Shown: piece after piece, positions 6,047 to 55,912 of the stretch
Position numbering within the stretch: position 1 is the stretch's first letter
Layout: every line of letters starts with the position of its first letter
Assembly (NCBI GenBank): GCA_043799675.1
Contig: JAZDNN010000024.1
Location: forward strand, 7,418 to 71,417
Direction of reading: 5' to 3'
DNA length: 64,000 bases
Origin: Candidatus Aenigmatarchaeota archaeon
GTDB lineage: Archaea; Aenigmatarchaeota; Aenigmatarchaeia; Aenigmatarchaeales; JACQIB01
Program-made: the position numbers and the translations under genes
The notes under the pieces: model-generated
Told to the model about the DNA's origin: nothing
The model's input: only the letters and a program-made list of their open reading frames with translations
Database searches by the model: none

Positions 6047-6253
6047 ATTGCTTTCAGAGGACGGGAGTATAAAAAGCGGAGTGGAGCCTTTAGTCTCCAC
6101 GCCACTTGCGAAACCCAAAAAAAGGTGGAGTGGAGCCTCGGGAGGGAATTGCACCCTCGACCTGCTGTTTGCTTGGTTGCTTACAAGACAGCCGCTCTTC
6201 TGCCTGAGCCACCGAGGCAAGAGATTTAATAGGCCGAGTCTTAAAAGCTTGGC

Positions 6254-13547: not shown

Positions 13548-14774
13548 ATGTACAGTATGAAAAACCCGAATTTGGTTGAGGCGGCCACCAAACCCGATAT
13601 AAGGTTCAACCCGAAGCGCTACACGTATAGTGTAGACCATCATTACTTCAAGATGTGGACGCCTCAAATGGCGTATATTTTAGGGTTCGTGTTTGCGGAC
13701 GGCGGAATAGAAAGGAACAATACGACCCTTGCCTTTGAGTTGCAGATGCGGGATAAAGAGATTTTACGAAAAATAAGAGCGGCTCTAAAATCTACCCATC
13801 CGATTTCAGCGACCAAAGCAGGCGAGTATGTACGATTACGGATCAATAGCCGTCAAATAGTTGACGATTTGAAGAAGCTTGGAGTAACGCATAATAAAAG
13901 CAAAGATTGCACATGTCCAGATATCCCTCAGCGGCTGTTGCCGCACTTCGTGAGAGGGTTCGTGGACGGTGATGGCTGGATTATTCAAAGAACCGGCAAT
14001 AACAGACATGAAATAAGCGCGGGTTTCTGCCATGGTTCTAAGGGGTTCCTTAGATCGCTGGTAAATCAGATTCGAGCGGCGCTTGATATCAAGGCATTTA
14101 ATCTACGGGCTAAGTATAAGGCAACTAGCAGCGGCAAGAGGTCGTGCACATATAGCATAGAATGGTATTCACACAACGCGTCGAAATTTTTAGATTGGAC
14201 ATACAAAGACGCAGACATCTTCTTGAAAAGAAAATACCAAAGCTATCTGAGAAGCAAACGGCTTTTTGAGGAGTTTTCTTCAAAAACGCGGCTTTGGAGA
14301 AAGGTCGAAACCAAACACAGAATGCCGCTAAGAGCCATCCTCGACGGCATGTTGGCCCGGGGTTCGAGCACCTGTCAGATTTCGGGGAATGTCGGAGTTT
14401 CATCGGCTACGATTTACAGGTGGTTAGACAAAACTGACATAAGGAAACCGGTGAAGAGGGTGTCCAAAGCGCCTGTTCTCATGAAGTGCCAGACCTGCGG
14501 TGACATTTTCAGAAAGTTTAAAGAAAACGCCAGCTATTGCTCACTTTCCTGTGCGGCGAAACATATGGCAGTTTCTAGATTGTCTGGGAACAACGTCACG
14601 TGCGCTGCATGCGGTAAACGTGTTTATAGGCCGAACTGGTGGTTTGCGATAAACAGTCGCGCCTTCTGTTCCAATAGTTGTCACGGGAAATGGCAAGAGA
14701 CCCGTTTGGCGACCAATTCGCTGCAACGCTGCAGGACCGATGGCCGCTTCCTTCCTGCTTCAGGGAGGCTATAG
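13548..14774 (+). CDS. free-standing double-motif LAGLIDADG homing endonuclease with C-terminal HTH and Cys-rich zinc-binding region
   Basis: motifs ILGFVFADGGI and FVRGFVDGDGWI about 100 aa apart. Confidence 0.8.
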   Translation: MYSMKNPNLVEAATKPDIRFNPKRYTYSVDHHYFKMWTPQMAYILGFVFADGGIERNNTTLAFELQMRDKEILRKIRAALKSTHPISATKAGEYVRLRINSRQIVDDLKKLGVTHNKSKDCTCPDIPQRLLPHFVRGFVDGDGWIIQRTGNNRHEISAGFCHGSKGFLRSLVNQIRAALDIKAFNLRAKYKATSSGKRSCTYSIEWYSHNASKFLDWTYKDADIFLKRKYQSYLRSKRLFEEFSSKTRLWRKVETKHRMPLRAILDGMLARGSSTCQISGNVGVSSATIYRWLDKTDIRKPVKRVSKAPVLMKCQTCGDIFRKFKENASYCSLSCAAKHMAVSRLSGNNVTCAACGKRVYRPNWWFAINSRAFCSNSCHGKWQETRLATNSLQRCRTDGRFLPASGRL

Positions 14775-14776
14775 AA

Positions 14777-15316
14777 ATGAGCAGTTTTTCACTCAAACGA
14801 ATCACGGATTCGGTCATAAGATTCGGTGAAATACACAACAAGAAGGTCATACCCGGCGAGGGCCCCTCTAACGCAAAATTGGTAATGGTCGGTGAAGCCG
14901 GCGGAAGGGAGGAAGAGAAATTGGGTCGGCCATTTGTTGGCAGAGCTGGGCGCTTTCTAAACAAAAGCCTCTCCGAGGTCGGTATCGACAGAAACAAGAT
15001 TTACATAACCAATGTGGTTAAGATGCGCTGGCAGGGTCGGCCACCTCCATCTGCTATCGAGGAGTGGCTACCGCTGCTTAAGGAAGAACTGGAGGCGGTA
15101 AAACCGCGGATAGTGGTATTACTAGGCGACGTCGCCGTCAAGGCAGTGCTGGACAAGAGCTACACTATAGGCAACAATCATGGCCAGTTGATACGGAAGG
15201 ATGGTCAGGGCTTTCTGGTGATGCCGCATCCGAGCGCGGCGATGAGGTTCAACAGGATGCGGCTGATGTTCAAGTCGGACATGGACGGACTCAGGCAGTT
15301 GCTGGGTGAAAAATAA
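14777..15316 (+). CDS. udg: uracil-DNA glycosylase family 4
   Basis: GEGP..AKLVMVGEAGG...GRPFVGRAG motif; internal ATG chosen after the upstream stop. Confidence 0.8.
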   Translation: MSSFSLKRITDSVIRFGEIHNKKVIPGEGPSNAKLVMVGEAGGREEEKLGRPFVGRAGRFLNKSLSEVGIDRNKIYITNVVKMRWQGRPPPSAIEEWLPLLKEELEAVKPRIVVLLGDVAVKAVLDKSYTIGNNHGQLIRKDGQGFLVMPHPSAAMRFNRMRLMFKSDMDGLRQLLGEK

Positions 15317-17647: not shown

Positions 17648-18927
17648 TGTCCGACTTTTTTTTAAAGGTTGCGGTACCAATCAGAAGCATGGTTTTAACC
17701 AAGTACGACCGCGGACTGCTGGAAATGATGTACCTGCTCACGAGGAAGCAGAGCCACATGAACCCTTCGGGGGTGGCAAGATACCTTTCCGAGCAGGGCA
17801 TACGGGTGACGGACAGGACAGTGAGGAGATGGTTCAACTACCTCCAGACGCACCGTTTCGACTACTTCCCGTACCCGAAATTCAAGGCGATGGGCCTCAC
17901 TCCCGTGTGGGTTTTCACGGATTTCAACGAAAAAATACTTGAAGCGATTCCACACAAGGTGGCAATAGTAAGCGGATTCGACCTCAGGAACCTCGAGAAA
18001 CGCCTGCTGGGCCTTTACTTGGTTCCGACGGAGCGGCTGAAGGATTTCAGTAAATTGTGGGCGGATGCCGTGGACGCAAAGGCGTTGAGCTTCTGCCAGC
18101 TGCTTGAAGTGGGCTCAATCAACTCCTTCTATTCGCCCTTCCACAAGCTGGTTGACCGTAACGGCATCGCCGACTTCGTGGATGACCACGAGCCGGACAA
18201 TTCCTACTTCACGGACATGCTGCGGAAGAGCACCGGCACGGAAAGCAGTGCCGGGATGAGCCCGCGCATATGCAAAAACCCGCTGATAATCCCGGTAATA
18301 TGGGAATCGTTCAGGAAGAACGCGTCGTCGCAGAAGATATGGAACTCGTTCGAAAGGAGGGCGGGTAAAGCCGCATGGGATTACATAAACAACCCGAAGG
18401 TGAGGAGAGAAAAGAAGACCGGATGCGGGATAAGGCACGTGCAGAACACCATGAGGGAGATGCAGGACAATTTCGGCGAGTTCTTCCAGCAGATGAGAGT
18501 GTCATACAATCCCCTGTACACGCACCACAACAGCATGTTCTATATGCTGCTGAAGCTGAAAAGAAGGGAAGACATCGTGCCGCTCTCGGAACTGCTCTCC
18601 AAACAGGCAATCTCAATCGTGGCGTACCCGCCCAGGGACGCGAAGAGCAGCCTGATGATGTACTACATCCTCACCAATGCCAAGGAAAGCGTCAATATCA
18701 TCAGCGACCTCATACAACCGTACATCGACAAGTCGTTCGACAACAGGATAATCACGGAGGACTTCAAGGGAACGGCGAAATACAGGAACCCGAACATGCG
18801 TCACTGGAAGGAGAACTACATGATGTCCTGCTACCACAAGCTGTTTGACCCCGTGACATGCACGTGGAAGTTCGATACCAAGGCGTACGCCAAAAAGCTG
18901 AACGCTGCCGGCATCAGACAGGGCTGA
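17648..18927 (+). CDS. hypothetical protein with N-terminal HTH
   Basis: HTH-like segment PSGVARYLSEQGIRVTDRTVRRWFNYL; start uncertain. Confidence 0.4.
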
Positions 18928-20335
18928 TGTTCTTCTCCAGCAGCTTGCAGATGAAGACGCGGAAATCCGGAGGAAGTTTTGATAGCATTGTGATAACCGG
19001 GGCACCGCTGGCAACGGTTGATTTCAAAAGGGCAGATGCTATGTGGCTCGGCATTCCTTTGCCCAAAAGAACATGCTCGGGCTGCGCAAAGAACGATTTC
19101 AGGTAATCCAGGGCGACCGTGTGTTCCCTCTCCGTTTCGGTGACCCAGCAGTCCTTCTCTATCCAGCACTTCTTCTCCCTGTAATGCTCCAAAAAGGCCT
19201 TTGCCTGCTTGTGCGACCAGATGGTCGGGCCGACGTGCTTCACCACCCGAGGAACCTGCCACACCTCGAGCTCGAACAGCAGGATGCAATCCTTTCCGTC
19301 CGCCCACACGTCCCTCCTGAGCACGCGGAATCCGCCGTCCGCCAGGAGACCTTCCAGGGAAGCGGAGGCCTTCCGCATCTGCGGCCACAGGGTATCATCC
19401 ACCAGATTCATCGGACGGTCGAACCTGACAAGGTACCAGCGGGTGCGCCTCCTTGCTATGGCTGCAGCCACTTCCTTCACGCTGTACGGCCTGGCGCGGG
19501 GAGGGAAGAACCACTTCTGATGGGGCAACAAAATGAAATCCCTGCACGCCCTGGCAAAAGCAAAGAAGCTGTCTGCCGAGACCGCCGCGGCAACGTTGCG
19601 GTTCGGGTCCACCGGATCTATCACCATCATGGGGGCGCGGAACTTCTCCAAAGCGGCCTGATAATCAACGGCCTTCCGCTCAAGGTCTATCAGGAGGCCT
19701 GCCTCCCATTTCTGCGCCTCGGCCGCGCAGCGGGCAAAACTGCCGTAATGAATGGCAAGCAACTCGCAAAGGTAGCCGGAGAAGCCCTGCGTCTTCACGT
19801 CGGCGCCATAAGCTCCTGCAGCTTTTGCGAAAGCCTTGATGAGCCTCGCGGTGTCGGACAGGTCCGGAGTGAAACGCTTCTTGATATAGGAAACGTGGTG
19901 CGGGGTCCTATCGACCGCGGACTTTATCCTCGACGGATCGGGAACGTCATACGCGGGCACGACGTCTATCGCATAATCCAGCTTTCCCGACTTCATCGAG
20001 CCGCGGAGGTAGGGATGCTCGGCATAGGCTATCTCCCACTTGCCGTTGAGGGTGGAAATTATCTTCTTCGCGAGGTCAAGCCCCTTCTTCTCAAACTCTT
20101 CCCGGCTGACGGCGGGATTGAAAAGCAGGAACAGGTCGAACTCGCGCTTTCCGGCAAGCCAGGTGCCCTTCTCCACCGAGCCGCACATCACGGGCACGGC
20201 CGTGTTTCCCGCTATCTTTGAGGCGACCTGCATCACGGCATTCACGGCCGATTGCATGGCTGACTGGTCGGAAGCGGAGGGGCGTATTTTCTTCAGAACG
20301 GAAGTAAGGACCTTCTCAACCGGCTGCGCTGGCAT
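18914..20335 (-). CDS. cca: CCA-adding tRNA nucleotidyltransferase (archaeal class I)
   Basis: GSVEKGTWLAGKREFDLFLLF polymerase-beta NTase motif; N-terminus trimmed where it is antisense to the CBS gene. Confidence 0.8.
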   Translation of the reverse strand: MPAQPVEKVLTSVLKKIRPSASDQSAMQSAVNAVMQVASKIAGNTAVPVMCGSVEKGTWLAGKREFDLFLLFNPAVSREEFEKKGLDLAKKIISTLNGKWEIAYAEHPYLRGSMKSGKLDYAIDVVPAYDVPDPSRIKSAVDRTPHHVSYIKKRFTPDLSDTARLIKAFAKAAGAYGADVKTQGFSGYLCELLAIHYGSFARCAAEAQKWEAGLLIDLERKAVDYQAALEKFRAPMMVIDPVDPNRNVAAAVSADSFFAFARACRDFILLPHQKWFFPPRARPYSVKEVAAAIARRRTRWYLVRFDRPMNLVDDTLWPQMRKASASLEGLLADGGFRVLRRDVWADGKDCILLFELEVWQVPRVVKHVGPTIWSHKQAKAFLEHYREKKCWIEKDCWVTETEREHTVALDYLKSFFAQPEHVLLGKGMPSHIASALLKSTVASGAPVITMLSKLPPDFRVFICKLLEKNISPV

Positions 20336-20381
20336 ACCTTTAATTGACAGCCTATAAATAAAGGCTAAGGAAAGATTCGGT

Positions 20382-20813
20382 ATGCTGGTCTCGGAAGTGA
20401 TGAACAAGCGGGTCAGGACCTGCCGGAAGGACGACACTGTCCGCCAGGCAGCGCAGGAAATGAACAAGTGGCACATAGGGAGCCTGATCGTGGTGGACGG
20501 CCCGGGAAAGGTCATAGGAATAATAACGGAGAGGGACATCCTGACCGAAGTGGTGGCCAAAGGCCTGCGGAGCGATGACGTGGATGTCAAGGAAATAATG
20601 ACCGGAGACGTGATAGAGGTCGAGTCCAGTGCCACCCTTGAGGATGCGGCCGAGATAATGACACTTAAAAAAATAAAGAAGCTGCCGGTGGTGAGGAAGG
20701 GGCAACTGGTCGGCATCGTGACGGCGACCGACCTGATAATGTACGAGCATTCGCTGATAGAAAAAGTGTCAACCCTGCTGCAGACCGGAAAAAAGGCCGC
20801 TGTGTGCGGCTAA
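20382..20813 (+). CDS. CBS domain pair protein
   Basis: two CBS motifs (HIGSLIVVD, KKLPVVRKGQLVGIVT). Confidence 0.8.
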   Translation: MLVSEVMNKRVRTCRKDDTVRQAAQEMNKWHIGSLIVVDGPGKVIGIITERDILTEVVAKGLRSDDVDVKEIMTGDVIEVESSATLEDAAEIMTLKKIKKLPVVRKGQLVGIVTATDLIMYEHSLIEKVSTLLQTGKKAAVCG

Positions 20814-47861: not shown

Positions 47862-48353
47862 TTGGACTGGCGCAAGGCATTTCACGACCGGTCATTTAAG
47901 AGCCGGAAAACAAAGCTGCTCATGCCGAAGTTCAGGTTCATTCCCGAGATAGCGATAGCTGATGTAGCCTTCGAAGCGGAAGGTAAGGACATCAATGAGC
48001 TGTTTGTGAACTGCGCCCTTGCAACCGAGGAATCCATGGTCAACACAAAGAAGGTGAAGCCGAAGGTCAGCAAGACCATAAAGCTGGAAGCGGATGCGCT
48101 GGACAGACTGATGATTGACTGGCTGAACGAGGTGATTTACTACAAGGACGCGGAGGGGCTGCTGTTTTGTGAATTCATCGTCAAGGTATTGCAAAAGGGA
48201 AAGAACTGGACGCTTGAAGCCACGGCAAAGGGCGAAAAGAGGGACCCGAAGAAGCACGAGCTCAGGGCGGATGTGAAGGCGGCGACTTGGCACCTTTTTG
48301 AACTGAAGCAGGAAAAGGGCAAGTGGAAAGCGAGGATTGTAGAGGATATCTGA
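47862..48353 (+). CDS. archease (RtcB activator)
   Basis: FIPEIAIADVAFEAEGKDINELFVNCALA matches the archease N-terminal signature. Confidence 0.6.
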   Translation: MDWRKAFHDRSFKSRKTKLLMPKFRFIPEIAIADVAFEAEGKDINELFVNCALATEESMVNTKKVKPKVSKTIKLEADALDRLMIDWLNEVIYYKDAEGLLFCEFIVKVLQKGKNWTLEATAKGEKRDPKKHELRADVKAATWHLFELKQEKGKWKARIVEDI

Positions 48354-48362
48354 TTACAACGC

Positions 48363-49196
48363 TTAGCTGCGTATTCCGCGGATTGTCCCTGTCGTGAACA
48401 CATTGTTGCCCTGGTCGACGTAATCTATCCGCACCGACACGCTGTACGGGTCCCCTGCGTTGCCGTTATTTCCCCGGCCGACATACCATGCGCTGTAATC
48501 GGGTTCCAGAGTTGGCGCGTTGATGTTGCTCAATAACGTTCCGTTCAGGGATACCAAGGCAATAGTTATAGCGTAATTGAAATGGGAATTCAGCAGGAGC
48601 ATCCTGAAAGTGCCGTTATGCGAGTAATCTGCATCGATCACGTCTATGCTGCCGAAATCGGATATCATCTTCGGCGTGCATGCCTGCGATTCCTGCGGTT
48701 TTGTATTATTCAGACCGCACGAAGCGGCATCAACACACGTACGCGTCTGCATCGCATTGGCGCCGCAAACCGACCACGCGCTGCACTGCCATACCGGGGC
48801 GCACGTGCATGCATCGCTTTCGGATGGCTTGCCTACGGTCGTCCCGCAGTGGTTCGAATCGCTGCACGTCCTTGTCTGGGTTCCCCCGACGCACAGGGAC
48901 CACGCACCGCAATACCAGTTCGGCGTACAATGGGTCACCTGCGCACAGCCGTTGGTTTCCTCCGGCCTGCCCGTGTTCGTACCGCAGGAGTTCTCATCAA
49001 CGCACGTCCTGGTCTGGACTCCGGAGACCGAGCATGCGCTCCATGCGCCGCACTGCCAGTCCGGCGTGCATACAGCTGGTGTCGGTTCGGGTTCAATCGG
49101 CCTTACAATAAACTGCATGACGAATACCAACGCAAGCGCGATGAGCATCAGGGACAATATCAGGATGACGGCGTTTTTGCTTCCGAATTTCAGCAC
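48363..49196 (-). CDS. secreted Cys-rich repeat protein (4 repeats of CxPxWxCxAWSxCxxxGxQTRTCxDxNxCG)
   Basis: signal anchor; repeats directly visible. Confidence 0.55.
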   Translation of the reverse strand: MLKFGSKNAVILILSLMLIALALVFVMQFIVRPIEPEPTPAVCTPDWQCGAWSACSVSGVQTRTCVDENSCGTNTGRPEETNGCAQVTHCTPNWYCGAWSLCVGGTQTRTCSDSNHCGTTVGKPSESDACTCAPVWQCSAWSVCGANAMQTRTCVDAASCGLNNTKPQESQACTPKMISDFGSIDVIDADYSHNGTFRMLLLNSHFNYAITIALVSLNGTLLSNINAPTLEPDYSAWYVGRGNNGNAGDPYSVSVRIDYVDQGNNVFTTGTIRGIRS

Positions 49197-49260
49197 AACT
49201 GAAATGGTGATTATCGCTTAATAAAGAAAAATTTCGGCTTTGCTATCTGATTGCAGGCGC

Positions 49261-50127
49261 TTAGCTGCGCTCTCCGGAAACCGTTCCGGTAACTGAAAAC
49301 CCGTTACTGCCGCTATCCAAGTATGTCATCGTTACAGCGAGGGTATATGGATCTCCAACGTGGCCATTCACTCCCATGGTATTTGTGCCTGTCAGCCATA
49401 CCCTTTCCAGAGGGAATAAGTTCATGGGCACGTTCATGGATGGTATTTGTAAACCGTTGACGCTTACAGACGTAATGCTGATGGTATCGCCAACCCTGTC
49501 CTCCACCCACAATTTTAACGTACCATTTGCAGCGTAATCGACATCCAGCACACCTATGTTCGTGAAGCCGCTGATTGTCTTGGGAGTGCAGGTCTGTGAT
49601 TCCTGCGGTTTGCTTGTCGTTGTCCCGCAAGAATTCGTGTCAATGCATGTTCGCATCCGCGTTCCGCCGGCACCGCACGCGGACCATGCATCGCATTGCC
49701 AGTTAGGAGTACATGTACATGGTTGTGTTTCCAAAGGCCTGTCGCTAAACAGATTGCATCTGTTTGCATCCGTGCATACCCTGCTCTGATTTCCCGAATT
49801 ACTGCAATTGGTCCATGCACTGCACTGCCAGTCAGGCACGCAGGGTGGCGTGCAGAACTGGGTTTCAACAGGCTTGTTATAATTCACGCTGCAGGAATTC
49901 GCATCTATGCATGTCCTTGTCTGCGTTCCTGAAGCGGAGCATGCATTCCACGCCCCGCACTGCCAATCAGGCGTGCATACTGGGGGCATCAGAGGCCCAC
50001 TTGGCTTAATCAGGGATTGCACAATATACAACGATGCAAGCGCAACGATTATTACAGCCAGAACCAAGATAATGACGTTTTTCTTTTCGGATTTAGGCAC
50101 ACCTATTTTCTTTTCTGACTTAGGCAC
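49261..50127 (-). CDS. secreted Cys-rich repeat protein, paralog
   Basis: same repeat module. Confidence 0.55.
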   Translation of the reverse strand: MPKSEKKIGVPKSEKKNVIILVLAVIIVALASLYIVQSLIKPSGPLMPPVCTPDWQCGAWNACSASGTQTRTCIDANSCSVNYNKPVETQFCTPPCVPDWQCSAWTNCSNSGNQSRVCTDANRCNLFSDRPLETQPCTCTPNWQCDAWSACGAGGTRMRTCIDTNSCGTTTSKPQESQTCTPKTISGFTNIGVLDVDYAANGTLKLWVEDRVGDTISITSVSVNGLQIPSMNVPMNLFPLERVWLTGTNTMGVNGHVGDPYTLAVTMTYLDSGSNGFSVTGTVSGERS

Positions 50128-50210
50128 ACCAAAAATGACTATTACCGCTTAATAAAGATGAATTTTGGCTTTGCTGCTTGATTTATTAGCGGCGCAAACG
50201 ATTAGCTGGC

Positions 50211-51795
50211 ATGGAGCAGGAACCTGAAAAGCAGACAGGCAGTCTGCCGAAGGAAATCAAGAAAATCAGCGAGGTCGTCTGGGAACTGCCCACCAGCTAC
50301 AAGAAAGGCATGCGCGTGCCGGCAAGAATATATGCGACCAAGAAGCTGCTCGATGCGATGGACGCGGGAGTGTTCGAGCAGGTCACCAACGTCGCGACCC
50401 TGCCGGGAATCGTCAAGCATGCGTTCTGTATGCCGGATGGGCACTGGGGTATGGGTCAAGTCGCGGCTTGATTCACTCAAATATGGGTTCCCAATCGGCG
50501 GCGTGGCTGCATTCGACCCGAAGGTCGGCGTGATCAGCCCGGGCGGCATCGGGTTCGACATCAACTGCGGCATGAGGTTCGTCACTACCAACCTTACTGT
50601 CAAGGACGTCAAACCCAAGCTGAAAGAACTGGTGGATATCCTGTTCAGGACGGTTCCCGCGGGCGTGGGCGGGGAAGGGTTTGTAAAATTAAGCCGCAGC
50701 CAATTCGACGAAATAATGGTCCAAGGGGCCAATTGGGTCATCGAGCACGGCTACGGTTGGAAAGAGGACACGGAAAGAATAGAGGAGTACGGCTGCATCA
50801 AAGGTGCTGATCCGTCAAAGGTCAGCGACAAGGCAAGGACCAGAGGCATCACGCAGATGGGGACGCTCGGCTCAGGGAACCATTACCTGGAAATCCAGAC
50901 TGCCGAGAAAATTTTCCTTCCCGAAGTCGCAGAGGCATTCGGCGTGAACGAACAGGGGCAGATAGGGGTGATGGTGCACTGCGGCTCGAGGGGGTTCGGC
51001 CACCAAATCGGAACGGATTATCTCAGGATATTCGACATGGCAATGAAGAAGTACAACATCACGGTGCCTGACAGGGAGCTTGCCTGTGCGCCTTTTGCGA
51101 GCCAGGAAGGACAGGATTATTATCACGCGATGGCCTGCGCGGCAAACATGGCTTTTGCCAACAGGCAGGTGATTTTGCACAGGATACGCGAGGCTTTTGC
51201 AAAGGTGTTCAGGAAATCCCCCGAAGACATGGAAATGCACCTGGTGTACGATGTCGCGCACAACGTGGCCAAGGTGGAGAAACACCTGGTCGACGGTCAT
51301 GAAAAGGAACTGGTGATGCACCGGAAGGGGAGCACGCGCTGCTTCGGTCCGGGTAGGCCGGAGATTCCTGAAGCTTACCGCAAGGTCGGCCAGCCGGTGA
51401 TTGTGGGCGGCAGCATGGAAACGGGCAGCTTTTTGTGCGTGGGCACGGACAAGGCTCTGACAGAAACATGGGGAAGCACCATGCACGGCGCGGGCAGAAC
51501 CATGAGCAGGACTTCAGCGAGGAACCAGGGCTCGGGCTTGGCGTTGCAGAAGAAGATGGCCAAGGAAGGGATACTGGTGGAAGCCACGAGCATGAGCGGG
51601 CTTGCAGAGGAAGCGGGCTTTGCCTACAAGGACCTGAACGAAGTGGTCGAGACCATGGAAATCGCGGGCGTGAGCAGGAAGGTCGTTCTGCTGAGGCCTT
51701 TGGGTAATATTAAAGGCACCGCCCGGGCCTCATACAGCCTTTTAGCTTTCCCCATACTTGTCATGGTCTTGGCCTTGATTTCGTCCCTTATCTGA
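50211..51795 (+). CDS. rtcB: tRNA-splicing ligase RtcB, interrupted by a 31-nt frame-breaking insertion (candidate BHB mRNA intron about 50451-50481); C-terminus extended past the usual ...IKG end
   Basis: N-terminal ORF (50211-50471) ends ...AFCMPDGHWGMG*; second frame continues YGFPIGGVAAF...; deleting the 31 nt restores MPDGHWGYGFPIGGV. Confidence 0.8.
50451..50481 (+). other. 31-nt insertion in rtcB (candidate archaeal BHB-type mRNA intron, or pseudogenising indel)
   Basis: flanked by direct repeat TATGGG; exon UGGG (ending 2 nt before the junction) pairs with intron CUCA 2 nt before the 3' junction; internal hairpin UCAAG/CUUGA. Confidence 0.5.
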
Positions 51796-52859
51796 ACGAT
51801 AAGCGGTTCGACCTGTTTCCACCTCGTGATGTTCTTGCCGATTATTTCGAGAATCAATTCCTTTTTGGCCGTTTTCTCGGGATGCCTCAACGGCAGCAAT
51901 TCGAGCATCCGACGGACATCGGCCTTCCTGAAGATTTCTAAGGCGAAATAATCCTTGCTGTATCTTATACTGACCCCATGAGTGTCTCTGCCGTCCCCGC
52001 GCCTGAAAATCCTGTATAGAATTGGATTAAAGCCCTGTTCCCTTAGTTGCCGTTTTATCCTACCAAGCAAGGTTTTATTTTCGGTGCCTATCCGCATACA
52101 ACACTGCAAATTTTCCCTGATTTTCTTGACCAGAAGCGACCCTTCCGCATCGAAGTAGCCGGCCAGGAACGACAGGAAAACATTCCGTTCGGATTCGACC
52201 AACTCTGAAATCAATCGTTTCCTGTTTTCCAGCAAGAGGAAGTCGAAGCTGTTGTCGAGGTCTGCGGATGTCGTCCACATGTAATTTCCAAAAGTTCTGT
52301 TCTTCGCAGGATATGTCCTTACCTTCGCATATCCTTTGAACAGGCTCTCGAAGACATCCAGGAATCCTTCATGAGTCGTGTTGGTTATGGCCCGAATGGT
52401 ATGCTTCGATCTTCTGAAGGCTGTCACATCACCCTCCACGAAACCAACCATGTAAGCCTTTTCTTCATCCTTTCCATCAAAACTTTGCCGTTCATGTTTC
52501 CTGTTTGTCAGCAGGATAGCCTCATCGTTTCCACGCACCCGAAAGCCGTTTTCTTCCAGCACCTTATGCAACGTGCCTTTGGAAGAACCAAATTTCTTGG
52601 CCAGCTTTTTCAACGATATTTTCTCCGTGTCATAAAGTCTCAGAATTTCCGTCACAGGCAGGTGTTTCCTGTGAGACAACGAATGTGCCTGACTGAGATT
52701 CCTTATCGGTATGTCAAGTTTGATGAACCGTTTTCTTACGGCCGACCACGATATATCGTCTCCGAGCTTAACACTCAATATCGCCGCCACTTCTTTGAAC
52801 GTCTTACCGGACGAATAGAGACTCTCGGCTTCCTTCAGGAGTTCGCTGTTCAGCTTCAT
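51624..52859 (-). mobile_element. free-standing LAGLIDADG homing endonuclease gene (HTH N-terminus, two LAGLIDADG motifs)
   Basis: YMVGFVEGDVT and FLSFLAGYFDAEGSL; 3' end overlaps antisense to the extended 3' end of rtcB. Confidence 0.7.
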
Positions 52860-52914: not shown

Positions 52915-53991
52915 CTAATCATGCAGAATACATCCAAAAATATTATTATACCTTCCAGCGAGCGCATTTCTCAACCTGAACGTGTCGCCCTGCGCCGCAT
53001 AGGCCATCCAGCCCTCAAGGCTTTTCGCAGCCTGTTCTGCCGAAATCTCACCGGATTCGTACTGCAGTCTGAGTGCCGTCATCCTTTTTTCGAGCTTCAG
53101 CAGGTTCCTCCTTTTTGGAATCCTGTAGTGGTAGAACACCCTGAAGCCGAGCAACGATATCCCCTTATGCAAAGGGTAGACCTGCGATTTTTCCTCATGC
53201 AACTCTAGCTTTAACCGTTGTTTGAGGAACCCGTTTATCCCGCTCCTGAACTGCATCAGCGCGGCCTCAGACCTGTCCAGAATCACGAAGTCATCTACAT
53301 ACCGGAGATAGAACCTTGCCTTAAGCACGTGCTTCACGAAATGGTCCAGCTCATTCAGGTAGACGTTCGCGAAGAACTGGCTCGTCTGATTGCCTATCGG
53401 CATCCCCTTCGGCAGGGCAGGGTCGTTGTTCGACAGGATTTTCCGTACCAGCCAGAGCACGCTTTCGTCCCTTATTTTTCTCCGTATGATGCCAATCAGG
53501 ACATCGTGGTCGACGCTCGGGAAATAGTGCCTTATGTCGGCCTTCAGTGCATAGCCGACCACCATGTTGTTGTCCTTCGCGCCGTGCACCAAACGGCCGT
53601 TCCCGGAAACCTTTCGCTTGAAGCAATCAAACCTGTCCAATGCTGCCAGGCCGCCCTTTCCCTTCCTGTTGGCGTAGCTGTCGTGGATGAACGTTTTGTC
53701 GAAAATCGGTTCGAGCACGTTGCATAACGCATGATGGACAACACGGTCCCTGAAATGCGAGGCATGAATTACCCGTGTCTTGGGGTCGCGGATGATGAAC
53801 CGTTTCAACGGGCGCGGCGAATACGTACGATTTTCAAGCTCAGTTTTCAAATCTGCCAATTCGCCATCAAGATTAGCTTCGAATCTTTTGACATACCATT
53901 TCTTCGACTTGCCCTTCCTCGCCTTTCTGAATGCCAGCAAAAGGTTCTCTGGCGAGCAGACCTTTCCGTAAAGGTTGTCAAATGTTTTCAA
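52915..53991 (-). CDS. diversity-generating retroelement reverse transcriptase
   Basis: RT motifs including the DGR-specific motif-4 IGNQTSQ (IGxxxSQ) and YVDD; about 358 aa, no maturase or endonuclease domain; TTG start. Confidence 0.85.
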   Translation of the reverse strand: MKTFDNLYGKVCSPENLLLAFRKARKGKSKKWYVKRFEANLDGELADLKTELENRTYSPRPLKRFIIRDPKTRVIHASHFRDRVVHHALCNVLEPIFDKTFIHDSYANRKGKGGLAALDRFDCFKRKVSGNGRLVHGAKDNNMVVGYALKADIRHYFPSVDHDVLIGIIRRKIRDESVLWLVRKILSNNDPALPKGMPIGNQTSQFFANVYLNELDHFVKHVLKARFYLRYVDDFVILDRSEAALMQFRSGINGFLKQRLKLELHEEKSQVYPLHKGISLLGFRVFYHYRIPKRRNLLKLEKRMTALRLQYESGEISAEQAAKSLEGWMAYAAQGDTFRLRNALAGRYNNIFGCILHD

Positions 53992-54196: not shown

Positions 54197-54436
54197 TTTC
54201 GGTAGCCTCTCCACCGACATGACACCGCGGCTTCAATCTTCGGGAACCTACCAACTGAAACCGCTGAATTTAATGGCACAAGCATTCGGACGGCATGAAA
54301 TGCCATCGCACCATCTTGCGCTCTATGGAAAGGCGTATAGCGCGGGCCTTTGCCGGGAGAATGAAATACCCGCCCCCCGATTGGGAAGGAAAGAACTCTG
54401 TCATGCAAAAATTGAGGGACGAAACGATTTATGCGC

Positions 54437-55183
54437 CTATTTTGAGGTCTTAACCGCTTTTTTTGCGGCGCAGACCCCGAGGTCATGCCTGAGCGAGGGC
54501 CCGCCCGCATCCGCATCGAAGCACCCCCCGTCGGAGTGCCAAGTCGACCTGACGGAAGCCACTTCAACCGGGATTAAGGCTTCTGTTTCGATTTCTACTA
54601 TATCCAGTTTGTTGTCTTTCATCCTGTAAGAAGCCGCTTTCTGTTTGGCCAGCTTTTGGATGACCTCAAGATTATGATTCCAGTAATCGTCCATCGTTGC
54701 CTTGTATTCCTTGTCGGAATTCATCAGTTCAGCCGACTCCTGTGCCTTGAAGTGTCTTACTCCAAAGTCCAGCTTGAACTCCTCGGGTATTCTCTGATAG
54801 ACCAGTTCCTGGATTATCCTGTCCGCATTGGCGATGAACCCTTTGCGTTTATAGTCCCTGAACTTTCCTGCGTCCCCTTTGGCCATCAGGAGCGCATAGC
54901 CTTTCTTTTCAAGGTCCTTTTCCAGCCTCTTTCCGTCAATTATGGCCAATATTTCATCGACCTCTCCCAACCTTTCTTTTACAGAAAAATCATCATCAAA
55001 TATTACAGAGCCATTGTAAGCGGCCAGCTTCGAATCATACGCGCCTGCTGCACGCAGATAATCGAGAACACAGCCTTCAACAGTTACAGGCACGGCTTTT
55101 CCCGTGAACCTGAATTCCCCGTCGATAATCCTCACTTCAGGCTCGGGCATCACGACCGTTGTTATTTTGCTCATGATAATCAT
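54437..55183 (-). CDS. DGR target protein A (variable region at C-terminus, plus-strand about 54467-54560)
   Basis: C-terminal ...SVRSTWHSDGGCFDADAGGPSLRHDLGVCA aligns to the spliced TR with differences at TR adenines. Confidence 0.75.
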   Translation of the reverse strand: MIIMSKITTVVMPEPEVRIIDGEFRFTGKAVPVTVEGCVLDYLRAAGAYDSKLAAYNGSVIFDDDFSVKERLGEVDEILAIIDGKRLEKDLEKKGYALLMAKGDAGKFRDYKRKGFIANADRIIQELVYQRIPEEFKLDFGVRHFKAQESAELMNSDKEYKATMDDYWNHNLEVIQKLAKQKAASYRMKDNKLDIVEIETEALIPVEVASVRSTWHSDGGCFDADAGGPSLRHDLGVCAAKKAVKTSK

Positions 55184-55186
55184 TCT

Positions 55187-55912
55187 TCAGAAGTGCTTCT
55201 TCACGACTTCGAGGTCTTTCATCAAAGCGTCATATTTCTTTGACTTTTCCAGAAGCTCCCGGTATTCGCTCTCCGCGACCTCGCACATCTTCGGAAGCTC
55301 GGCCTTCTCGTCCGTTTTAAGGAGGGCGCAGACCCCGTCGTCAGCCCAGTGCGAGGGCCTGCCCGCAGTCGCATTGAAGCACCCCTCGCCCGTGGTCCAA
55401 GCCGACCTGACGGAAGCTTCACCGTTTTCAAACGAGATGCTTCCCCTCCAGACCTTCTTTTTCGGTTTCTTGAACAGCCCGGCATTCACGAGTGTATCAA
55501 AGACGTCCGATTTGCTTATCCCGGCCCTTGTTCTTTTGCCGTCATATTTGAGTTCACCGTTCACTTCCTTCACGACGGGGTCGGCTATTATCTCGCCCTT
55601 CTCAAGGGCGACTTCCCTGTTGTGCAACCAATAATCAATATTCATTTTCTTGAACGACTTGTCCTCGTGCACCAAATCGTAAGAAACCTGCAACGGCAGG
55701 AGCGTGTAGCGCTCGCCGACCTTCTTTGATACTTCCTGACCGAGAAGCGTCATCTGCCTGTGGTCGAGGTTCGCCACGAGGCCATTGCCTTTGTAGTCGT
55801 TGTGCCCTTCGGCAGGACTTCCCTTCCATTTCGGGAAATACACCGTTTCCTTGCCCGTGGGCGGCACTATCTTTCCCGCTATCTCATGGACGATTTCGGC
55901 CTGTGTTACCAT
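55187..55912 (-). CDS. DGR target protein B (VR plus-strand about 55325-55416)
   Basis: paralog of A; VR differs from the spliced TR only at adenines (11 of 11 differences). Confidence 0.75.
   Translation of the reverse strand: MVTQAEIVHEIAGKIVPPTGKETVYFPKWKGSPAEGHNDYKGNGLVANLDHRQMTLLGQEVSKKVGERYTLLPLQVSYDLVHEDKSFKKMNIDYWLHNREVALEKGEIIADPVVKEVNGELKYDGKRTRAGISKSDVFDTLVNAGLFKKPKKKVWRGSISFENGEASVRSAWTTGEGCFNATAGRPSHWADDGVCALLKTDEKAELPKMCEVAESEYRELLEKSKKYDALMKDLEVVKKHF

Follow-up and report, generated by a model that had tools for sequence, protein, structure and literature searches.

The gene for the ligase RtcB (rtcB) occupies positions 50211-51795 on the + strand of a 64-kb stretch of contig JAZDNN010000024.1 from a Candidatus Aenigmatarchaeota archaeon (this whole stretch is called the window below), and its reading frame changes inside the invariant MPDGHWGYGFPIGG motif. 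The head open reading frame (ORF) at 50211-50471 encodes 86 amino acids with the C-terminal end ...MPDGHWGMGQVAA (also given as ...CMPDGHWGMGQVAA), and the body ORF, which is in the +1 frame relative to the head, reads ...SLKYGFPIGGVAAF... and continues up to 51795. This break had been noticed in a preliminary description of the DNA and is plain from the ORF translations, where head and body lie in different frames. Removing 50451-50481 (ATGGGTCAAGTCGCGGCTTGATTCACTCAAA, 31 nt) produced ...CMPDGHWGYGFPIGGVAAF, repaired the frame and restored the motif as HWGYGFPIGG. Joining ...CAC UGG GGU to UAU GGG UUC CCA... in silico gave MPDGHWGYGFPIGGVAAF. The proposal made in that description, that a 31-nt deletion at this place brings back the conserved motif, was upheld by the in-silico spliced product, which matched the entire Pfam RtcB model (1-426/426, E 5e-171) and could be aligned from one end to the other with the RtcB of P. 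horikoshii (PDB 7lfq/1uc2), where the motif is MPDGHQGYGFPIGG. The direct repeat TATGGG said to flank the segment lies at 50450-50455 and 50482-50487.

Read in this way the gene has an exon 1 at 50211-50450 (+), encoding residues 1-80 and ending ...CAC UGG GGU (His-Trp-Gly), and an exon 2 at 50482-51717 (+), beginning UAU GGG UUC (Tyr-Gly-Phe) and ending with the usual RtcB C-terminus ...LGNIKG. The segment between them (50451-50481, +, AUGGGUCAAGUCGCGGCUUGAUUCACUCAAA) is a candidate 31-nt intron of the HBh'-type bulge-helix-bulge (BHB) class, judged by frame repair, by its geometry and by homologous introns in relatives. In the frame of exon 1, a UGA stop codon at 50469-50471 inside the candidate intron closes the 86-residue ORF. 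A tblastn search with the spliced protein placed residues 1-89 at 50190-50456, and a homology search with the same protein found one rtcB copy within the window. An exact look-up of the 86-residue head fragment found no match on record.

The substrate of the archaeal splicing endonuclease (EndA) is a 4-bp helix between two 3-nt bulges (PMC2738675; PMC5829648), and each bulge is cut between its residues 2 and 3 (PMC2738675). At the rtcB insert the exon strand of the central helix H, UGGG (50445-50448, +), pairs with the intron strand H', CUCA (50476-50479, +), forming 4/4 pairs including one G-U. The 5' bulge GU↓A (50449-50451, +; arrows mark cuts) has its predicted EndA cut between 50450 and 50451, and the 3' bulge AA↓U (50480-50482, +) between 50481 and 50482. 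The inner helix h' (50452-50475, +) stacks directly on the central helix and is a 10-bp hairpin pairing 50452-50461 with 50466-50475 around the loop CGCG (50462-50465); the stem counts as 11 bp under a lenient loop rule and as 10 bp otherwise. The pairing and bulges had been given with correct coordinates in the preliminary description, and the UCAAG/CUUGA hairpin noted there is present as part of the 10-bp stem. An alternative junction removing 50450-50480 encodes an identical protein (GGA instead of GGU) but was rejected as it has no BHB geometry.

The BHB conformer of the insert was calculated at -12.6 kcal/mol. When this region of the window was folded by itself for minimum free energy (MFE), the result (z = -1.3) was not significant, and the folding thermodynamics of one sequence do not establish the motif. 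To estimate chance occurrence, 6.0 million position-by-length tests were made over the whole window on both strands. The combination of 4/4 central pairs and an inner helix of at least 8 bp was matched 32 times, and with an inner helix of at least 11 bp only twice, one of the two being the rtcB insert. A structure-only scan of 50400-50520 returned 50451-50481 as the sole candidate restoring the conserved motif.

The same site is interrupted in other genomes. In a protein search the close relatives P0008 (94% identity) and P0011 (91%) were truncated RtcB bodies. Their contigs, L018 (JGI metagenome, about 93-94% amino acid identity) and L019 (NCBI assembly, about 91-92%), both carry an rtcB split at the same place as in the window, with a head of 81-83 residues and a separate body. 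The two inserts, each 32 nt long, are unlike that of the window in sequence, and removing them again yields HWGYGFP. Because these independent assemblies are split at the same place, an assembly error or private pseudogene is ruled out. Homologous 32-nt introns were found in L018, L019, L101 and L117. Metagenomes were then scanned for MPDxHxG and GFPIGG coding blocks with an extra 20-50 nt between them, and at least 120 contigs had an insert at this position (site 1) of 17-39 nt. The matches listed together with the window made up 109 unique sequences, which are the basis of all counts out of 109 below. The intron-bearing RtcBs share 46-93% identity with the window protein, so that the site is occupied across a deep radiation. 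Named relatives of the other intron-bearing lineages were Woesearchaeota, Nanoarchaeota or Nanoarchaeia. Among full-gene loci, 47/65 were intact after in-silico splicing, and 16 of the other 18 were explained by a second BHB intron. None of 17 species-representative genomes (53-71% identity) had an insert, the GTDB representatives gave no close relative, and a scan of viral contigs for an interrupted rtcB motif gave 0 matches.

Intron-less alleles exist close to the intron-bearing ones, with intron-less relatives overall at 86-96% protein identity. L101 and L117, with their 32-nt intron, share 96% protein identity and about 88% DNA identity with the intron-less L140, which reads CAT TGG GGG TAC GGG TTC and has the same archease-rtcB synteny. 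The nucleotide alignment of L140 with L101/L117 breaks at the junction and leaves 36 bases unaligned on one side and 4 on the other, so that the two differ there by 32 nt. For the L081 lineage, relatives with an uninterrupted gene were found at 86-90% identity and relatives with a truncated one at 87-94%, and the L069 lineage has an intron-less relative at 90%. The nearest uninterrupted homologues (about 70% identity) include bacteria, e.g. Kryptonia and Aminicenantes, which points to a possible transfer of this RtcB type between archaea and bacteria. The intron was absent from all bacterial rtcB genes examined.

All 109 sequences permit a junction that rebuilds GGN-UAY-GGN (Gly-Tyr-Gly). The cut falls as GGN U↓AY in 105 and after the Tyr codon in 3, and GGU↓UAU occurs in the window alone. 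In the canonical register, exon positions -6 to -3 pair with intron positions L-5 to L-2. At the junction defined by the coding sequence this register was fully paired (4/4) in 83 sequences, had 3/4 pairs in 17 and had 2/4 pairs in 9. Sequences with 4/4 pairs and an inner helix of at least 3 bp numbered 79 in the true register and 0-5 when either junction was slid by 1-2 nt. Protein restoration and RNA geometry, two independent criteria, thus select the same phosphodiester bonds.

The exon strand of the central helix begins with the second and third bases of the codon preceding Gly and ends with GG, and the intron strand covaries with it. Glu GAA goes with AAGG/CCUU (24 sequences) and Glu GAG with AGGG/CCCU (7); Ser UCA goes with CAGG/CCUG (6) and Ser UCU with CUGG/CCAG (1); Trp UGG goes with GGGG/CCCU (32), and the window has UGGG/CUCA (1). 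Positions were anchored on the junction only, with no alignment, and 1000 shuffles served as control. Central pair 2 formed in 109/109 sequences (G-C 67, A-U 37, G-U 4, U-A 1) and in at most 92 in the best shuffle. Inner-helix pairs 1-5 formed in 108, 107, 106, 103 and 97 of the 109, every one of these pairs being realised by 4-6 pair types; the shuffles averaged 46-76 and peaked at 62-85. The outer helix h was not found in the family (O1 paired in 35/109, O3 in 1/109). A distal exon-exon helix in the MFE fold was considered as the outer helix and rejected, as it showed no covariation and was equally frequent in intron-less genes. Because there is no outer helix, the motif is of the relaxed HBh' type, a recognised subclass, and not strict hBHBh'.

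Intron length is unconstrained by frame, with 71 frame-shifting introns and 38 whose length is a multiple of 3. An in-frame stop is present in 37 of these 38 (shuffled mean 21.6, maximum 30). For the Gly codon that contributes its third base to the 5' bulge, GGA is used in 99/109 intron-bearing genes vs 6/18 intron-less ones (Fisher p = 3e-7). In the window the junction has moved 1 nt relative to all 105 phase-2 introns, from GGGGAU↓...↓AUGGG to GGGGU↓...↓UAUGGG. Exon 1 has lost one A and the start of exon 2 has gained one U, and the Tyr codon and the frame are retained, a shift that is understandable only when cleavage of the RNA obeys the BHB rule.

A second BHB intron site was found in rtcB within PGG[IV]G[FY]DINCG, the metal-binding Asp/Cys motif (GGIGFDINCG). 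It is occupied in L023, L026, L027, L033, L036, L048, L052, L056, L070, L074, L096, L100, L111, L120, L132 and L137, about 90-130 nt downstream of the site-1 intron, by inserts of 12-33 nt at no fewer than 5 codon positions. All of these (16/16) had 4/4 central-helix pairs at the junction that restores the motif. The window rtcB has no intron at this second site. Over the two sites the introns occupy at least 7 nucleotide positions in rtcB catalytic motifs. Intein-like insertions (CL... right after DINC) follow ...GFDINC in L028 and L127, and spliced ORFs of 641-1005 amino acids, long enough to include an intein, were seen in L031, L046, L058, L083, L085, L124 and L134. In some rtcB genes the catalytic motifs thus appear to hold an intein as well as a BHB intron.

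These results make it very probable that 50451-50481 is an archaeal BHB intron in the rtcB pre-mRNA. This was the central claim of the preliminary description, and the occurrence in at least 120 contigs, the register match, the covariation and the near-identical intron-less alleles all support it. From this conservation we infer that the rtcB mRNA is actually spliced, and going by known BHB processing (PMC5829648, PMC7714728) the acting enzymes are most likely EndA and RtcB. Cleavage by EndA at GU↓A and AA↓U would produce ends with a 2',3'-cyclic phosphate and a 5'-OH. RtcB with archease would then join ...UGG GGU to UAU GGG..., restoring HWGYGFPIGG and the frame, with a predicted spliced junction in the window of ...CACUGGGGU followed directly by UAUGGGUUC... 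The unspliced mRNA would yield the 86-residue fragment only. Unless there is another 3'-P/5'-OH ligase, RtcB must seal its own mRNA, and new ligase synthesis would depend on EndA and on pre-existing RtcB.

Several observations weigh against a spliced BHB intron. Searches for proteins made from spliced rtcB in two lineages returned only intron-less relatives at no more than 90% identity and truncated calls, and no protein was found that spans the junction and is identical to an intron-bearing lineage. BHB geometry with a short inner helix is frequent by chance (458 matches with at least 5 bp in the window scan). In 9 sequences exon GGGG stands opposite ACCA with only 2 Watson-Crick pairs. These have tails of the form ...ACCAAA↓ and include L018, L019, L101, L117, L046, L054, L065, L080 and others; two G-C pairs lie between G.A oppositions, and the genes are otherwise intact. 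This suggests that DPANN endonucleases tolerate non-canonical central helices, and because the closest relatives of the window have GGGG/ACCA with 2 Watson-Crick pairs, the recognition rules in its clade would seem not to be fully canonical. Relaxed motifs are reportedly left uncut by strict alpha4 or alpha'2 endonucleases (PMC5829648), and because the outer helix is absent an EndA of broad specificity must be assumed. In DPANN, an association with disrupted tRNA genes has been reported for alpha4 EndAs that carry an L3 loop (PMC5829648). A Pfam scan of about 50 window ORFs turned up no EndA. With only 64 kb of the genome in view, a second intact rtcB could also lie elsewhere.

Given a spliced intron, the question is whether it does anything for its host. 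We lean slightly towards an intron without regulatory function, selfish or neutral, in which the dependence of RtcB on itself is accidental. Such an intron could persist through broad-specificity DPANN endonucleases and because its precise loss from an invariant catalytic motif is hard. Its patchy distribution, with intron-less relatives at 86-96% protein identity, is in keeping with this, as are the free variation of the intron sequence apart from its structure and the cbf5 intron, which shows the same gain and loss with no known function (PMC2738675, PMC7714728). The spread over two sites, together with the inteins, is the pattern of parasites targeting conserved sites. The retention of the site among RtcBs down to 46% identity speaks for a function, and the excess of in-frame stops (about 22 expected among the 38) suggests selection for a clean off state, but neither is decisive. 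The autoregulatory loop raised in the preliminary description would be no more than a logical consequence of the self-dependence, and the scatter of introns and inteins over the catalytic motifs fits selfish elements at least as well as regulation.

Two further ideas are tentative, and we doubt them more than we favour them. One is that the rtcB introns are a built-in control circuit of the splicing pathway, and the other, separate from it, is that DPANN BHB introns are mobile elements homing repeatedly to rtcB catalytic motifs. If the control circuit were true, ligase synthesis would be coupled feed-forward to endonuclease activity, and RtcB output would be self-reinforcing or titrated by competing tRNA halves. 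The in-frame stops would then secure the clean off state, in an archaeal counterpart of XBP1/HAC1 switching.

Translational recoding, in which the ribosome either hops over the 31 nt in the manner of phage T4 gene 60 or the byp elements of yeast mitochondria, or frameshifts across them with no RNA splicing, is highly improbable. The insert is short with a stable hairpin, and the UGA at 50469-50471 comes soon after the conserved Gly codon, an outline like that of T4 gene 60. For a hop, however, the take-off and landing codons must match, and decoding starts again after the landing codon; the TATGGGT repeats lie at a distance of 32 nt, out of phase with the 31-nt shift required. In 105/109 genes the insert splits the Tyr codon as U↓AY, which a hop could not rebuild, and landing on the downstream GGN would remove Tyr-Gly from the invariant motif. 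Bypassing also has no need for the covariation that links the exon, in exact BHB register, to the insert's 3' end. A pseudogene, or an assembly or sequencing indel, in which the 31 nt are junk or error and this rtcB copy is dead, has a practically negligible probability. A frame break in a single essential-gene sequence is most often error or decay, and the one copy in the 64 kb visible leaves room for another. This reading is contradicted by the interruption of the same site in two independently assembled relatives and at least 120 other contigs, by purifying selection on both exons (the full Pfam match, the 46-93% identity and the 47/65 intact genes), by inserts with conserved structure and compensatory changes, and by the compensated 1-nt junction shift that keeps the frame in the window. 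Group I or group II introns were rejected, the inserts being 17-39 nt against a catalytic core of hundreds of nt with no Rfam match in the region, as was an IRE1-type intron, since the junctions lie in bulges beside one 4-bp helix and not in the 7-nt loops of twin stem-loops; archaea are not known to have IRE1.

A BHB intron in rtcB has its closest parallel in the pre-mRNA of cbf5, for which an intron was reportedly described in Crenarchaeota by Watanabe in 2002. The cbf5 gene encodes a pseudouridine synthase, and its BHB introns in Crenarchaeota are 16-44 bp long (Yokobori 2009, PMC2738675). Both the cbf5 and rtcB introns are short, lie in a protein-coding gene at a codon of a catalytic motif, and have a relaxed or unconventional BHB with the junction between bulge residues 2 and 3. 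Some lengths are multiples of 3 in both, gain and loss are patchy, and the genes are split or misannotated by gene callers. They differ in gene, in host (DPANN vs Crenarchaeota) and in endonuclease background. The rtcB family has at least two intron sites and several phases in one gene family, and its host gene is the splicing pathway's own ligase, so maturation is self-referential. Splicing of cbf5 was shown by cDNA and in vitro cleavage, whereas that of rtcB is deduced. The analogy with cbf5 drawn in the preliminary description therefore holds for the kind of intron (short, in a catalytic motif, patchy) but does not extend to autoregulation, cbf5 being outside the splicing machinery.

Archaeal BHB introns including relaxed HBh' motifs were reportedly surveyed by Marck and Grosjean in 2003. 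Introns of tRNA and rRNA share with the rtcB intron the 4-bp central helix, the 3-nt bulges with 2+1 cuts and the intron-internal helix. In rtcB, unlike these, the substrate is coding mRNA, where codons dictate the exon strand and the intron strand follows it, and there is no outer helix and no tRNA body aiding recognition. A BHB intron has also been described in the 5' untranslated region (5'-UTR) of Haloferax volcanii HVO_1309 (PMC7714728). As in rtcB, the substrate of the splicing endonuclease is an mRNA and not a tRNA or rRNA, but this intron lies in an untranslated leader in a single species, whereas the rtcB intron interrupts an ORF in more than 100 metagenomic lineages.

In eukaryotes the XBP1/HAC1 mRNAs are cleaved by IRE1 and ligated by RtcB/Trl1, and the XBP1 intron is 26 nt long (PMC4282640, PMC10630183). 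The shared features are a short frame-shifting mRNA intron, a protein endonuclease, 2',3'-cyclic phosphate and 5'-OH ends, sealing by RtcB and a protein product switched on by splicing, which in the case of rtcB is presumed. The rtcB intron differs in that EndA would act on a BHB, not IRE1 on twin 7-nt stem-loops, in that no stress sensor is known, and in that the target is the ligase itself. Inteins occur in archaeal RtcB, for example P. horikoshii PH1602. They too are removable insertions in RtcB catalytic motifs, but they are removed at the protein level, keep the frame and are hundreds of residues long.

We found no report of an rtcB intron in the searchable literature, and papers of 2020 and 2025 cite only cbf5 as a coding-gene example along with the Haloferax 5'-UTR intron (PMC7714728, PMC12397907). 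The rtcB gene would be the second protein-coding gene family with an archaeal BHB intron, in a different superphylum (DPANN). A second gene family, at least 120 contigs, two sites and clear covariation suggest that BHB introns recur in coding regions and are not a curiosity. The loop would be self-referential, new RtcB needing old RtcB and EndA, in parallel to eukaryotic XBP1/HAC1. Since annotation turns intron-bearing genes into two fragments or into pseudogenes, RtcB would be undercounted in DPANN metabolic and completeness reconstructions, and other DPANN genes are probably undercounted likewise. The junction-anchored BHB test could be converted into an annotation rule.

Downstream of exon 2 the rtcB ORF of the window continues past the usual ...NIKG end into a hydrophobic C-terminal extension of 25 codons and a stop (TARASYSLLAFPILVMVLALISSLI; 51718-51795, +). 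This tail is kept in L018/P0008, P0002 and L059/L064 and absent in L019/P0011; it occurs in 4/44 complete intron-bearing genes. It may be a membrane anchor, or read-through following loss of a stop codon. A convergent LAGLIDADG-family ORF at 51624-52859 (-), MFH0829934.1, overlaps the tail with its 3' end.

Upstream of rtcB, the cofactor archease is encoded at 47862-48353 (+), 1.9 kb away, and matched Pfam PF01951 with E 7e-39, which agrees with its placement in the preliminary description. The match starts at residue 32, and translation probably begins further downstream than the TTG at 47862. In L019 and L140 archease directly adjoins rtcB. In the window two paralogous minus-strand Cys-rich genes (48363-49196 and 49261-50127) lie between them; their proteins have CTPDWQCGAWSxC repeats and no Pfam match, and a 78-nt repeat is common to their upstream regions (49175-49252, 50106-50183).

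The host is known as a metagenome-assembled genome of the Aenigmatarchaeota, and the window's genes for TFIIB, an archaeal CCA-adding enzyme, Trm1 and geranylgeranyl reductase are in keeping with an archaeon. The L019 contig has S26e and Rpb4 genes. A tRNA-Thr(UGU) gene at 6131-6218 (-) carries a 12-nt BHB intron at 6170-6181 in the canonical 37/38 position. Its central helix is CUUG/CAAG with 4/4 pairs, and the 5-bp anticodon stem is restored only by removing the 12 nt. Because this tRNA carries a canonical BHB intron the organism needs EndA and RtcB. It had been suggested that tRNAs in this segment have non-canonical introns; the presence of a tRNA intron was confirmed in this one gene, but its position is canonical. 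ARAGORN reported the tRNA-Thr gene without flagging the intron.

A reverse transcriptase ORF (RVT_1) lies at 52915-53991 (-), with an Rfam RT-16 RNA match at 54197-54373 (-, 57 bits). A 93-nt direct repeat pair at 54467-54559 and 55325-55417 (82% identity) looks like the template/variable pair of a diversity-generating retroelement, and BHB-geometry matches occur in this region at 54514-54541 (-) and 54550-54593 (+). A second LAGLIDADG-like ORF at 13548-14774 (+) lies directly upstream of, and overlaps, a uracil-DNA glycosylase ORF at 14678-15316 (+). A 29-nt BHB-geometry match at 14746-14774 (inner helix 7 bp) would fuse these two ORFs and is probably due to chance. The CCA-adding enzyme ORF at 18914-20716 (-) is 600 amino acids long, about 150 residues above the usual. 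Its Pfam domains begin at residue 288, the N-terminal nucleotidyltransferase domain is without a match, and the ORF may hide an insertion.

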